A DNA stretch of 64,000 nt from the IMG/VR virus record IMGVR_UViG_3300024346_000003. One strand, given 5' to 3'. The notes under the pieces were generated by a model. The model saw nothing but the letters and a program-made list of their open reading frames with translations, ran no database searches and was not told the DNA's origin. Every line of letters begins with the position of its first letter. Positions within the stretch are counted from its first letter, which is position 1. The translations under genes were made by a program, and so were the position numbers. Of this stretch, positions 39,262-44,591 are shown piece by piece. This DNA comes from a virus. Its lineage: Duplodnaviria > Caudoviricetes.

Positions 39262-39280
39262 TAAAAAATAAAATTTTAAA

Positions 39281-39308
39281 AAAAAAGGGGAGGTAACTTC
39301 CCTTTTTT
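39281..39308 (+). terminator. intrinsic terminator
   Basis: AAAAAAGGGGAG-GTAA-CTTCCCTTTTTT. Confidence 0.85.
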
Positions 39309-39310
39309 CA

Positions 39311-39380
39311 TTTACATTATGTACCATATGATATAATTGGTGTATAGTATTTAGATTTTTTCAATTATATAAATATTTAT
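39311..39380 (+). promoter_or_regulatory. host-type (TTTAC-N16-TATAATTG) and late (ATATTTAT 39373-39380) promoters of the endonuclease
   Basis: Both motifs lie between the terminator and the ATG at 39395. Confidence 0.5.
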
Positions 39381-39394
39381 AATAAAAAAACTAT

Positions 39395-40291
39395 ATGGAT
39401 AAATTAATTGAAAATAAAATAATAGAACTTTATTTAAGCGGAATTGGGTCAACAACAATAGTTAAATTAACTAATATACCCAAACGTAAAATTTTAAATT
39501 TACTAAAAAATAAAAATATACTAAGAAATAGACATCATAGTAATGATTTTTATAATCAATTTTGGAATGAAGATGATATGTGGTGTGGTAATTGGGTTTG
39601 TGAAATGTGTAATGAAACAATTAAATTTTGTGTAAATAATAAAGTTTATTTAAATAGGAATTTAAATAAAAAGAAAATATGTAAAAGTTGTGCAAACAAA
39701 AATCAAATGGGTGAAAACAACTCATTTTATAGTAAAAAACATACTGAAAATAGTAAAAAATTAATATCGGAAAAAAAAATAGGTATTAAGACTAGTGACC
39801 ACATGAGCACCGATAAATATAGAAAAATAGTTAGTGATTTAGCCAAAGAAAGGTGGCAAAGTGGTAAAATGGAAAAAACTAGATTAAAATTAAGTCAAAT
39901 GATGAAAGACAAACACGCTAACGGTGAATTAAAATCAATAAATAGGTCAAAACCTGAATTTGAAATAATTGAATATTTAGAAAGTATTAATATAAAATGT
40001 GAACCAAGTTATAATGTGGAATCAAAAATATTTGACATATATATACCTAAATATAATTTATTAATAGAATATAATGGTGATTATTGGCATTGTAACCCTA
40101 AAAAATATGAGGCTGATTATTATAATAAGAAAAAAAATAAAACTGCTAAAGAAATATGGGAATATGATAAAAATAAACTTTACTTAGCAAAAAAATATGA
40201 TTATAATTGTATTGTAATTTGGGAAACAGATTACAAAAAAAATAAAAATATAATAAAAGAAATTTTTAATAATTATGAACAAATTAAATAA
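39395..40291 (+). mobile_element. free-standing homing endonuclease, Vsr/DUF559-like (EDxHD type) with HTH, Zn finger and NUMOD3-like segment
   Basis: N-terminal HTH, CEMC..CKSC, GENNSFYSKKHTENSKKLIS (NUMOD3-like), FDIYIPKYNLLIEYNGDYWH...YD..K...NCIVIWETD. Confidence 0.75.
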
Positions 40292-40292
40292 T

Positions 40293-41574
40293 ATGACCCC
40301 AGACAGTCGAAAAAAAACTAAGGTATTAGTAGTACCTAGCGACAGGTCTGGGGTCGGCTGAAGGTTATTTCAGAAGTGTTGCCCCACATGTTGGGTTAGA
40401 AAGATTCTACCCAGAAGAATTCCATGTTGATATTAATGAAACCCCAGATTTAAATAATGATGAATTTTTAAAACAATATGATATTGTACATTATCATAGA
40501 AATTTAGGTCAATATGAACAAATGCCTAGTTTATTAGAAAAATTAAAATCAATGGGTATTGTAACGATTATGGATTTAGATGACTATTGGGCACCAGGTC
40601 AACACCACCCAGCGTATTTGATTATTAAAAATTCTAAAATGTCTGAAAAAATTCTAGCAAATATTAAAATTGCTGAAAACATTACAACAACTACAGATGT
40701 TTTTGCAAGTGAAATTGGGAAATATAATAAAAAAGTTTTTGTATTGCCAAACGCAATTGACCCAACTGAAAAACAATACACACCAAATCCAGAAAAATCT
40801 GATAGAATTAGAATTGGGTGGTTAGGTGGTAGCTCACACTTAGAAGATTTAAAACTTTTAAGTGGGTTAGTTAATAAACTTAAATCAGATGGTTTGATGG
40901 ATAAAATACAATTTGTATTATGTGGTTTTGATTTAAGAGGTAATGTCACAATGATTGACCCTAAAACTGGTGAACAAACGCAAAGACCAATTAAGCCTAT
41001 GGAAAGTGTATGGTATGAATATGAAAAAATCTTTACGGATAACTATTCAAGCGTTAGTGAAGGTTATAAAAAACATTTATTATCATTCACAAAAGATGAA
41101 TATCATGATATAGCTAATGAACCATACAGAAGAGTCTGGACTAAACCAGTTAGCACATATGCTACTAATTATAACCTATTTGATATTTCATTAGCACCAT
41201 TGGCTGATAATCTTTTTAACAAAGTTAAATCACAATTAAAAGTGATTGAATCTGCTTTCCATAAAAAAGCATTGATTGCTCAAGACTTTGGACCATATCA
41301 AATTGATTTGGTTAACGCTAGAGTTAAATCTTTAGATAAAAATAACCCAGTAACATTTGATGGGACGGGTAACGCTTATTTAGTTAATAATAATGCTAAA
41401 GAATGGCATCAGTTTGTTAAAAGATTAATAAATAATCCAGAACAAATTGAAATACTATCAAATAATTTATATAATACTATAAAAGATAAATATTCTATTG
41501 AAGCTGTTTCTAAACAACGTAGAGAATTATATTTATCACTATTAAAAGAAAAGCAAAATGGTAATATTCAGTGA
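40293..41574 (+). CDS. GT-B (GT4-like) glycosyltransferase with a +1 frame break at 40359-40365 (recoded or pseudogene)
   Basis: Frame A ATG 40293 (or 40275): MTPDSRKKTKVLVVPSDRSGVG then TGA. Frame B from 40363: GYFRSVAPHVGLERFYPEEFHVDI...YDIVHYHR, continuous into ORF 40522..41574 (DLDDYW, IGWLGGSSH, DISLAPL..N.FNKVKSQLKVIE). Confidence 0.75.
40294..40373 (+). promoter_or_regulatory. two adjacent RNA hairpins flanking the frame break
   Basis: GACCCCAGAC(40295-304)/GTCTGGGGTC(40346-355), inner GTCG/CGAC and CTA.GGTA/TACCTAG stems; then CTGAA(40358-62)/TTCAG(40369-73) containing the TGA. Confidence 0.7.
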
Positions 41575-42941: not shown

Positions 42942-43514
42942 ATGGACAATAGAGTAAACGAATTATCAGACAAGTTATTTAAAGCTATTGACCCAAATAA
43001 CCCATACTCCTATGATGAATTCATTCACGAATATGGTAATGGGTATCAAGAATCAAATGACTCACCAACTTTTCTAATAAATTTAAATTTTGTTAATAAC
43101 TCTGAAAATGCAGACCCAGAATATGCAACCGAAGGTTCATCTGGGTTTGATTTAAGAGCATCAGCTTCTGTAAAAATTTTACCTGGTTGTTATGAAACAG
43201 TACCAACTGGTTTATTTTTTGAAATACCACCTAATTTTGAAATTCAAGTCAGACCAAGAAGTGGTTTAGCTGCAAAGAATGGTGTAACAGTTTTAAATAC
43301 ACCAGGAACTATTGATTCAGATTATAGAGGTGAAATCAAAGTGATATTAATTAATCATGGTAAAAAAGTATTCCAAATAGAAATGGGTGATAGAATTGCA
43401 CAAGGTGTAATCGCACAAACATCAACATCATATATCAAGTTAAACAAAGTTTCAAAAATATCTGACGATACAGAAAGAAGTTCAGGTGGTTTTGGTAGTA
43501 CAGGTATTAAATAA
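42942..43514 (+). CDS. dut: trimeric dUTPase with N-terminal extension
   Basis: [43 protein letters not shown]; start moved to ATG 42942. Confidence 0.95.
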
Positions 43515-43529
43515 AAAAATAAAATAATT

Positions 43530-44591
43530 ATGAGTCAATTTATTGGGGATAAAGACATTAAAGTAGATTTTAATGATATATTAATTACACCAGCAATTAT
43601 AACTGATATTAGTAGTAGAAGTGAAATAAACCCATTCCATTCGAATGGGCTTTTACCACTATTTACAGCACCAATGGATACTGTAGTTGATGAAAGTAAT
43701 GCCGACTTGTTTATGAGTCACAAACTAAATATTTGCTTACCTAGAGGTGAAAATCGAACACAACATAGTATGTTCCAAGCATACTCACTTAAACAATTTA
43801 CAGAAAAGTTTATACTTGATGATTTAGCTGACGTTCTTATTGAACCAATTTATGTTTTAATAGATACAGCAAATGGTCATATTCTCGAATTAGTTGAAAC
43901 GACTAGAATAGCAAAAGAGAGATACGGAAATATGATGATACTAATGGTTGGTAATATTGCAAATCCAGATACATACAAAGTATTATCTAATGCTGGTGCT
44001 GACTATATTCGAGTTGGTATTGGAAATGGAAACGGGTGCTTAACCACACAACAGTTAGGTATCGGATACCCAATGGCTTCATTAGTTAGAGAATGTTATT
44101 ATGCTTCATTATCACTAGAAAAACCAGCTAAAATTGTTGCAGATGGTGGTATGAAAGATTATTCAGACATTATCAAAGCATTGGCTTTAGGTGCTAACTA
44201 TGTAATGCTTGGTAGTATCTTAAACAAGTGTGCTGAGTCATGCGGACAAAGCTTTTTGAAGGATAATGGTCGCCCAGTACCCATTAGTAATTTAGAAGCG
44301 GTAAATCACTTTAAAAGAGGTGATTTAGGTGAAGCTACCATTATTAAAGAATTTCGTGGTATGTCAACCAAAGAAGTACAAAGAAAATGGGGTAATGAAA
44401 CATTAAAAACATCTGAAGGTGTTGTTAGACATAGACCAGTTGAATACACTCTTGAACAATGGGTTGATAATTTCGAATCTTATTTACGTTCAGCAATGAG
44501 TTATGTTGGCGCAAGAACACTTGAGGAGTTTGTAGCAAATTCAGAATTTATAAATATAACAAATAATTCATATAATCGATTTAAAAAATGA
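43530..44591 (+). CDS. GMP reductase / IMP dehydrogenase family (no CBS domains)
   Basis: APMDTV, IDTANGH, VGNIA, RVGIGNGNGCLT, IVADGG, GMST. Confidence 0.8.
   Translation: MSQFIGDKDIKVDFNDILITPAIITDISSRSEINPFHSNGLLPLFTAPMDTVVDESNADLFMSHKLNICLPRGENRTQHSMFQAYSLKQFTEKFILDDLADVLIEPIYVLIDTANGHILELVETTRIAKERYGNMMILMVGNIANPDTYKVLSNAGADYIRVGIGNGNGCLTTQQLGIGYPMASLVRECYYASLSLEKPAKIVADGGMKDYSDIIKALALGANYVMLGSILNKCAESCGQSFLKDNGRPVPISNLEAVNHFKRGDLGEATIIKEFRGMSTKEVQRKWGNETLKTSEGVVRHRPVEYTLEQWVDNFESYLRSAMSYVGARTLEEFVANSEFINITNNSYNRFKK

Follow-up and report, generated by a model that had tools for sequence, protein, structure and literature searches.

A short gap in a phage glycosyltransferase gene, carried by a homing-endonuclease cassette, is probably crossed by translational bypassing

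How can a full-length glycosyltransferase (GT) be made from a gene in which a stop codon and a change of reading frame separate the first β-strand of the enzyme from its body? This question is raised by a 64,000-nt stretch of viral DNA (the window; IMG/VR record IMGVR_UViG_3300024346_000003, Caudoviricetes), in which a free-standing homing endonuclease gene is followed by a GT gene with an interrupted start. Our comparison of the window with related loci suggests an answer that we consider highly probable: the gene is expressed by programmed translational bypassing, through a short peptidyl-tRNA hop, and the gap that is hopped belongs to a homing-endonuclease cassette that replaced the start of the GT gene. 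A first-pass annotation, made from the sequence of the window, had proposed a mobile endonuclease and, with it, a short insert over which the ribosome skips by a Gly-to-Gly hop, in the manner of T4 gene 60/mobA. The comparative data support this proposal: 124 alleles with inserts in any frame, covariation of the codons at the two ends of the gap, covariation of an upstream stem, purifying selection on both sides, and empty as well as filled sites.

The endonuclease open reading frame (ORF) occupies positions 39395–40291 (298 aa, TAA stop); it and the other features of the cassette and the GT gene lie on the plus strand. The GT leader ORF reads MTPDSRKKTKVLVVPSDRSGVG from ATG 40293 and stops at TGA 40359–61. 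A further in-frame ATG, at 40275, lies upstream, inside the last 17 nt of the endonuclease ORF and out of frame with it; in other alleles the conserved start is an ATG embedded in the ...KKYE codons of the endonuclease. The leader (40275–40358; 28 codons from ATG 40275, 22 from ATG 40293) is composed of an N-terminal extension, MNKLNNMTPDSRKKT, with its 17-nt out-of-frame overlap with the endonuclease ORF, and the native GT start in recoded form, KVLVVPSDRSGVG, which ends at the putative take-off codon GGC (Gly; 40356–40358). There follow the putative untranslated gap (40359–40362), made up of the stop codon TGA and one spacer base, A 40362, and the codon GGT (Gly; 40363–40365), the proposed landing site, at which the peptidyl-tRNA would re-pair and which would not be decoded again. 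Read from 40363, the +1 frame gives GYFRSVAPH... and extends over 403 codons to 41574; the GT body itself (YFRSVAPH...) spans 40366–41574, with its stop at 41572–41574. No ATG, GTG or TTG occurs in this frame before 40522; termination followed by re-initiation is therefore not an option, as there is no start codon after the landing site. The layout given by the first-pass annotation, from the endonuclease through GGC TGA A GGT to the +1 frame and ATG 40522, was exact.

The GT body was used as a query against 5.8 billion proteins, and thousands of relatives were returned. More than 100 of the best full-length homologues are uninterrupted, reading VLVVPSDRSGVGYFRS, that is ...KVLVVPSDR(S/T)GV(G/S)(Y/K)FRS...; therefore, the window has exactly 7 extra nucleotides between the Gly and Tyr codons. 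The idea that removal of these 7 nt joins SGVG to YFRS is thus borne out by intact homologues, which read SGVGYFRS. Among GenBank phages, a DNA search found no close relative of the window, and the best GT protein match has 32% identity and lies in a 735-kb uncultured phage.

The first-pass annotation had asked that the extra bases be verified in sequence data, and they are kept there. GGC TGA A GGT is identical in an independent ENA assembly (L001), in two JGI assemblies (L003 and L004) and in IMG/VR contigs, L085 among them. Other sequencing runs yielded contigs that cover 40150–40650 with no indel (X2, and X3 at a depth of 17.7 with 5 single-nucleotide differences), and 18 studies of marine and lake water have DNA runs in which the stretch is present; sequencing-run evidence was read as assembled contigs throughout. 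We reject a sequencing or assembly error on the grounds that the insert recurs in independent assemblies and runs. We also reject a simple 1-nt indel in a variant reading G-E-G: no homologue carries extra residues at this site.

What is the interrupted enzyme? The GT matches the PHROG 7162 glycosyltransferase family (E 1e-40), and a Pfam search of it gave no match. An AlphaFold2 (AF2) model of an intact homologue that is 98% identical (P0002) has a mean predicted local distance difference test score (pLDDT) of 86.7, and its best PDB matches in Foldseek are the GT4-type retaining enzymes MshA, PimA, GlgM and BshA (E 1e-12 to 1e-9). The model has the two Rossmann-like domains of the GT-B fold and its N-terminal β1/Gly-rich loop/α1 arrangement, with KVLVVP (residues 5–10) as strand β1 and residues 16–32 as helix α1. 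Judged by this model, the interrupted gene is a GT-B (GT4-like) glycosyltransferase, as the first-pass annotation had held, and the interruption maps between G18 and Y19, in the Gly-rich loop/helix start that follows β1. A separate observation concerns the same gene in other contigs: L016 (3631–5781), and likewise L005 and L007–L014, carry an in-frame insertion of about 360 aa in the GT at the invariant GGS|SH motif, with Cys at its start and ...WIGN at its end before Ser, resembling an intein with a homing-endonuclease domain. As both the intein-like insertion and the gap cassette occur in the same GT, the gene appears to be a hotspot for two kinds of selfish element.

Is the interruption peculiar to the window? 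Related loci were retrieved by four routes: the endonuclease and the GT body as queries against IMG/VR, and a degenerate DNA pattern encoding V-L-x-x-(P/A)-S-D-x-x-G-V-(G/S)-stop, scanned in IMG/VR and in JGI metagenomes. These yielded 339 loci, 300 of them with a GT N-terminus, which represent 190 distinct junctions, 66 uninterrupted and 124 interrupted, the latter from aquatic viral and metagenomic contigs. The pattern scan of genome contigs gave 10 matches, none with a GT or an endonuclease, which we take as chance matches. All 124 interruptions fall at the same codon, after (S/T)GV(G/S). The inserts measure 5 nt in 3 alleles, 6 nt in 69, 7 nt in 18, 8 nt in 15, 9 nt in 5, 10 nt in 1, 11 nt in 8, 12 nt in 2, and 13, 14 and 15 nt in 1 each, and so cover all three frames; the 13- and 15-nt inserts each hold a second in-frame stop codon, and in the 5-nt inserts the stop overlaps the landing codon (AGT TG AGC). 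Insert length varies within six clusters of close relatives (flank identity at least 88%), and 37 close pairs differ in frame. Because inserts of 5–15 nt occur in all frames and close relatives differ in frame, only a mechanism independent of frame fits the pattern, as a hop is and as readthrough or +1/−1 frameshifting is not. A contig from one aquatic sequencing run, X26, offers a further instance of a frame change in a close relative: it is about 92% identical to window positions 40255–40485 and lacks one base at 40361, which leaves a 6-nt insert.

Might the extra bases be removed or altered in the RNA, by splicing, editing or transcriptional slippage, before translation begins? This is the classical alternative for interrupted phage genes beside homing endonucleases, and we found nothing direct that speaks for it. 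Inserts of 5–15 nt are far too short for a group I or group II intron, there is no homopolymer on which slippage could occur, an Rfam scan of the region found no intron or other relevant family, and a tRNA scan found nothing relevant. A contig from an oligo-dT RNA-sequencing library (X25; 40292–40484, about 90% identical and aligned with no gap) keeps the insert unspliced, and no other RNA-library contig crosses the gap and reaches more than 31 nt beyond it in both directions; the insert is also kept in X19, possibly an RNA contig, and DNA carry-over is possible for both. We regard processing of the RNA as extremely unlikely.

If the ribosome itself crosses the gap, the codons on its two sides should be informative. 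Two of the scans fixed RGY and TRA in the pattern, so codon statistics are unbiased only for the 28 alleles that were retrieved with no codon constraint. In these 28, the take-off codon is always RGY (GGC 15, GGT 6, AGC 5, AGT 2), and the codon directly 3′ of it is TGA in 22 and TAA in 6; uninterrupted alleles use RGY at the same site in 29 of 66 cases (GGT 21, GGA 12, GGG 5, GGC 1, AGT 6, AGC 1, TCN 20). The landing codon stands just before (Y/K)FRS and has no counterpart in the intact protein. In 111 of the 124 alleles the take-off and landing codons, a Gly–Gly or Ser–Ser pair, agree in their first two bases, and in 111 of 124 no triplet that lies 3′ of take-off and closer to it agrees in this way. 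Ten further alleles go from AGY to GGC, where a G·U pair at the first codon position would let tRNA-Ser(GCU) pair. Three alleles with AGC as take-off codon have AGA as landing codon; translated, this Arg codon would mean a drastic substitution. Ser landing codons are AGC in 10 cases, AGT in 3 and TCN in none, and intact alleles use TCN for 20 of the 27 Ser codons at the site. Between the two codons, the stop is followed by 0–9 further bases, and these spacer bases are poor in G (A 77, C 35, T 26, G 5).

A second feature of the interrupted alleles lies upstream of the gap. In the window, an RNA stem-loop (40295–40355) is predicted with a minimum free energy (MFE) of −29.1 kcal/mol; its outer stem pairs 40295–40304 with 40346–40355 (10 bp) and abuts the take-off codon, its inner stem pairs 40306–40309 with 40340–40343, and its apical hairpin lies within the KVLVVP codons. 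The long hairpin that the first-pass annotation had placed here, ending at 40355, one base before GGC, is thus recovered, and it is a property of the family. When the 69 nt before the take-off codon were folded for each allele and scored as z against shuffles, interrupted alleles (n = 123) gave a mean MFE of −28.35 kcal/mol and a z of −5.98, and uninterrupted alleles (n = 66) gave −6.58 kcal/mol and 0.09. These z-scores replaced a 9-mer best-duplex score, which separated alleles with and without an insert weakly (7.9 vs. 6.7 pairs). Every interrupted allele has an N-terminal extension of about 10 extra codons with the motif ...(T/S/N)P-x-x-(G/S)R..., and uninterrupted alleles start MxKKIKVLVV. 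The conserved codons of the extension form the 5′ arm of the stem, and the codons for D-R-(S/T)-G-V, just before the take-off codon, form the 3′ arm, in which the Gly codon is GGG in 103 of 124 interrupted alleles vs. 10 of 66 intact ones. CCCC forces a Pro codon and GGTCG forces Gly-Arg in the extension; as these codons are the 5′ arm of the stem, the conservation of the extension is explained at the level of RNA.

The two arms covary. Pairs found in the family include ACCCCAG/CTGGGGT, ACCCCTG/CAGGGGT, ACTCCGG/CCGGAGT, ACTCCAG/CTGGAGT, ACGCCC/GGGCGT and ACCCCCG/CGGGGGT. Covariation was counted on a MAFFT alignment of 40 sequences of one register (A3), the others being folded singly; two MAFFT alignments of all insert alleles (A1 and A2) were unusable for pair counting, for the length of the internal loop varies by clade and shifts the columns of the 5′ arm. 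In A3, 88.7% of cells are paired vs. 27–46% when the partners are slid, 6 of the 14 pairs have changed on both sides (36 cells), and the covariation score was reached by none of 500 shuffles. The stem stays intact after the endonuclease has been lost (−27.3 kcal/mol in L121, −29.1 in L100) and decays in alleles that bear the extension with no gap (−20, −11 and −9.5 kcal/mol in L110, L111 and L136); it follows the gap, not the endonuclease. A hairpin around the UGA codon (CTGAA/TTCAG) had also been put forward. It exists in the window, as a 6-bp CUGAAG/UUUCAG helix, but is not conserved in the family, in which the downstream 45-mers have z of about 0.

Could these features reflect a mixture of standard recoding events instead, with stop-codon readthrough of the 6-, 9-, 12- and 15-nt inserts, +1 or −1 frameshifting for the others, and GGGGU acting as an internal Shine-Dalgarno stimulator? 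The 69 inserts of 6 nt are in frame, and a GGGG(U) run lies 1–2 nt 5′ of the P-site codon in 103 of 124 alleles, much like what is generally known of the prfB stimulator. Nevertheless, no slippery sequence is present, GGC_UGA_A allowing no +1 re-pairing; the 13- and 15-nt inserts would present two stops; close relatives that switch frame would need to switch mechanism; and neither the matched landing codon nor the absence of TCN would be accounted for. In addition, stem variants with GGGC/GCCC arms lose the likeness to a Shine-Dalgarno sequence but keep the pairing. We consider such mixed recoding very unlikely.

A further possibility is that the full-length GT is never made: a dispensable gene would have been inactivated, or a truncated enzyme would be produced from ATG 40522, with the alleles being spread by a selfish endonuclease. 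Gene callers indeed annotate only products of 346–361 aa at interrupted GTs, homing endonucleases can spread despite a cost, and these phages have many GTs besides those of this family. The pattern of substitution argues otherwise. The leader keeps the N-terminal amino acids of the GT, and the ratio of non-synonymous to synonymous differences (pN/pS) over the 13 codons before the stop is 0.26 in interrupted vs. 0.29 in intact alleles; over the 20 codons after the landing site it is 0.35 vs. 0.39. Synonymous replacements are plentiful (e.g. AGC/TCG for Ser, AGG/CGT for Arg), and the 53 codons from the landing site to ATG 40522 are open and conserved. The cassette lineages are old (endonuclease identity down to 36%), yet no second disruption accumulates, and the gap, extension and stem are intact in 27 alleles with no endonuclease. 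Moreover, a product started at 40522 would, according to the structural model, lack β1-α1-β2 of the N-terminal Rossmann domain, and a leader that encodes the GT's own β1 strand and loop only makes sense if it is covalently joined to the body. Loss of the full-length enzyme is thus, in our judgement, a very unlikely explanation.

We return to the peptidyl-tRNA hop, for which the following course of events can be proposed. The ribosome would start at ATG 40275 (or 40293) and translate 28 (or 22) codons, i.e. the first β-strand and the Gly-rich loop, and would then pause, the P site holding GGC with peptidyl-tRNA-Gly (anticodon GCC) and the A site holding UGA. If the stop is decoded slowly, tRNA-Gly(GCC), or tRNA-Ser(GCU) in other alleles, may have time to unpair. 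The tRNA would leave GGC, the mRNA would slide by 7 nt, the tRNA would re-pair with GGU, and decoding would resume at UAU, with ...SGVG-YFRS... at the junction of a full-length enzyme, which would be about 430 aa long when started at ATG 40275. At take-off, the 3′ arm of the stem would be melted inside the ribosome, its 5′ arm and apical hairpin having already emerged; re-zipping of the stem at the mRNA exit may pull on the mRNA and so bring the first matching codon into the P site. Besides, GGGGU in the G-rich 3′ arm may pair, as in prfB, with the anti-Shine-Dalgarno sequence a very short distance from the P site. In the DNA, homing would move four parts as one: the endonuclease, the new N-terminal codons, the recoded GT start and the gap.

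Several points weigh against the hop or narrow what can be drawn from the counts. The evidence for it is comparative throughout; the alleles are related, so that the counts are not independent events, and RGY and TRA were fixed in the scan pattern for later loci. The 69 inserts of 6 nt, being in frame, are readable through on their own. Of the 124 alleles, 13 have imperfectly matched codons, and L266 (GGC to AGC), L287 (GGT to GAT) and L015 are hard to reconcile with a hop and may be dead or defective. The conservation of the GT body could partly date from before the invasion of the cassette. No conserved take-off hairpin was found in the 45 nt from the take-off codon (123 alleles, z −0.07, like the insert-less alleles), and the conserved Pro and Gly-Arg of the extension are accounted for by the RNA stem, so that their conservation speaks neither for nor against a nascent-peptide signal in the exit tunnel, a feature of bypassing of the gene 60 type. 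Finally, work by Weiss, Atkins and Gesteland in E. coli is said to have found short stop-codon hops inefficient when strong stimulators are lacking; the high efficiency that the hop would need here is assumed.

How did the gap come to be in the gene? The window and the empty-site allele L002 are 97–100% identical in their flanks, and their homology ends at 39319/39320 on one side and some 8 nt past the landing codon on the other. L002 lacks the segment from 39320 to about 40372 and has in its place a 110-nt intergenic region and an ordinary GT start; around the hop site, all differences between the two in seven consecutive codons are synonymous, AGT to TCT being one of them. The converse relation holds for L003, L085 and L320, which are 75–90% identical to the window in the flanks and 95–100% identical in the cassette, from the promoter region of the endonuclease to 16 nt from the start of the landing codon. 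From the high identity of the cassette within diverged flanks, together with the empty site in L002, it follows that everything from the endonuclease to the landing codon, including the extension, the gap and the recoded GT start, moves as a unit. In the window this unit spans 39320–40376 and takes in, besides these parts, the promoter region and about 10–14 nt after the landing codon; its 3′ boundary falls within 40372–40379, 9–16 nt 3′ of the landing codon. Just 5′ of the other boundary, after the upstream 187-aa gene, lies a strong terminator-like hairpin (39270–39310; A-run, GGGGAGG...CCC, T-run), to which the only Rfam matches of the region, all sub-threshold, correspond.

The first-pass annotation had predicted that the insert co-occurs only with the endonuclease, and this is not borne out. 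When distinct junctions preceded by 1300 nt or more of sequence are counted, interrupted alleles (n = 101) have a full endonuclease in 66 cases, a partial one in 8 and none in 27; among uninterrupted alleles the numbers are 8, 2 and 52. Thus 27 of 101 insert alleles lack the endonuclease, and 8 insert-less alleles have it in full length. The association of the gap with the endonuclease is strong but not exclusive, and the gap outlives the endonuclease: in L001, L085 and L320 only remnants of the endonuclease are left, and the remaining cassette is untouched. A distant branch of the endonuclease family adjoins uninterrupted GTs. Three uninterrupted alleles with no endonuclease (L110, L111 and L136) have kept the cassette-type N-terminal extension and look like revertants that arose by precise deletion of the gap. 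The synonymous recoding clusters around the gap, within the most conserved motif of the GT, and the cassette boundary is close by; it is plausible, from this arrangement, that this site is the one recognised by the endonuclease and that the gap, the recoding or both protect the carrier from cleavage by its own endonuclease.

The endonuclease has an N-terminal helical domain, a C4 zinc finger (Cys69, 72, 96 and 99, invariant in the family), a NUMOD3/I-TevI-like DNA-binding region and a C-terminal nuclease of the Vsr/I-Bth0305I type (EDxHD). Pfam NUMOD3 was found in 18 of 18 family members and the Vsr-superfamily domain MTES_1575 in 14 of 18 (best E 1.6e-8), and one stretch resembles the DNA-binding domain of I-TevI (1i3j, E 4e-4). 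The C-terminal domain of an AF2 model has its best structural matches in I-Bth0305I (catalytic domain, 3r3p; template-modelling score, TM, 0.76 normalised to target) and in E. coli Vsr. Within the mobile cassette, 19 nt 5′ of the endonuclease start codon, positions 39368–39375 read TATAAATA, the consensus of T4-type late promoters. A second presence/absence polymorphism of an endonuclease lies further downstream: in the window, a dUTPase gene and an IMPDH-like gene adjoin at 43514–43530, and the near-identical L001 has between them, on the minus strand (L001: 4549–5250), a gene for a 233-aa GIY-YIG/NUMOD3/I-TevI-like endonuclease. The IMPDH/GMP-reductase-family gene directly after the dUTPase gene (43530–44591) is conserved in L001, L003 and L004.

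We think it likely, though with less assurance than we attach to the hop itself, that these alleles constitute a second family of endonuclease-borne bypass cassettes that evolved independently of gene 60 and is widespread in uncultivated marine and freshwater phages, and that a stop codon, a matched codon 2–12 nt away and one strong abutting stem-loop suffice for efficient hopping. To our knowledge, programmed bypassing has so far been known almost entirely from T4 gene 60 and its homologues and from one yeast mitochondrial lineage, and a full-text literature search found no description of bypassing in a glycosyltransferase or of natural phage gaps this short. If our reading is correct, an endonuclease of a different family has converged on the same solution in another gene, and an untranslated spacer hidden in the endonuclease's own target would count as a strategy of homing endonucleases in general, not as a curiosity of T4; it would also suggest that bypassing is under-detected, since gene callers annotate interrupted GTs as truncated proteins of 350 aa. 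A rule for annotating metagenomic phages would follow: downstream of a homing endonuclease, look for an RGY codon (Gly or Ser) followed by a stop and, after a short gap, by a matching codon. The family would further provide a minimal system (a gap of 2–12 nt, no take-off hairpin, one 5′ stem-loop, more than 120 natural variants) and a ready-made allelic series, with gaps in every frame, Gly and Ser tRNAs, and alleles that have lost the endonuclease or the gap, in which the long-debated driver role of pairing by the exiting mRNA and the rules of landing-codon choice would become directly testable.

The proposed hop can be set beside several known systems. Hops over stop or hungry codons in E. 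coli reporters were reportedly described by Weiss, Dunn, Atkins and Gesteland in 1987 and by O'Connor in 1989. There, as proposed here, peptidyl-tRNA leaves the codon before a stop and re-pairs a few nucleotides 3′ in a frame-independent manner, so that about nine nucleotides specify one amino acid; those hops, however, are mostly synthetic or adventitious, and inefficient, whereas the hop in the GT would be obligatory, evolutionarily maintained and served by a dedicated RNA structure. The +1 frameshift of the prfB type differs: its P-site codon is slippery and re-pairs in the +1 frame, the shift is always +1, and a Shine-Dalgarno sequence lies 3 nt upstream, whereas the GT alleles have GGC_U, which does not re-pair, and occur in all frames. 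Lang et al. are said to have described in 2014 the mitochondrial byp elements of Magnusiomyces capitatus, which resemble the present inserts in being many, natural, mobile coding gaps with matched take-off and landing codons. Those are GC-rich hairpin inserts of 27–55 nt spread across many mitochondrial genes with no endonuclease partner, whereas the cassette occupies a single site in one gene family, has far shorter gaps and is carried with an endonuclease. The endonuclease itself shares its catalytic fold with the I-Bth0305I/EDxHD family (TM 0.76 to 3r3p), members of which lie beside or inside conserved genes in phage and environmental DNA (Dassa 2009, PMC2677866; PDB 3r3p); I-Bth0305I, however, resides within a group I intron, and the family is also tied to split inteins, whereas the endonuclease of the window is free-standing and paired with a putative translational gap.

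The closest parallel is T4 gene 60 with its endonuclease MobA. This system, which is said to have been treated by Huang in 1988 and Bonocora in 2011 as well, shares much of its anatomy with the cassette: an endonuclease, an out-of-frame overlapping extension, a recoded copy of the target, an untranslated gap, a stop that immediately follows a Gly take-off codon, a matched landing codon where the gap ends, a 5′ stem-loop upstream of take-off, an insert in a highly conserved motif of the target, and a bypass that is kept while the endonuclease decays. The extension overlaps the endonuclease by 17 nt here and by 8–32 nt in the MobA/gene 60 element as dissected by Manning & Atkins (2022; bioRxiv 10.1101/2022.08.31.505936), and a driver role such as we suggest for the stem has been proposed in gene 60 for pairing of the exiting mRNA (bioRxiv 10.1101/2024.12.09.627546). 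The differences are equally clear. The target is the large subunit of topoisomerase II there and a GT-B glycosyltransferase here; the gene is split in two there, whereas its start is replaced here; and MobA is of the HNH type, whereas the endonuclease of the window is Vsr/I-Bth0305I-like with NUMOD3. The gap of gene 60 is 50 nt (20 nt in an Aeromonas clade), whereas the inserts in the GT are 5–15 nt, with 2–12 nt between the two codons. Gene 60 has a take-off hairpin that contains the take-off codon and the stop, whereas none is conserved here; its internal mini-Shine-Dalgarno sequence lies 6 nt before the landing site, whereas the sole Shine-Dalgarno-like element here (GGGGU) is 5′ of the take-off codon. 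The GT family, in turn, would make Ser–Ser hops besides Gly–Gly hops, and its 5′ stem-loop, which directly adjoins the take-off codon, is far more stable. The gene 60 cassette and that of the window show no apparent sequence similarity.

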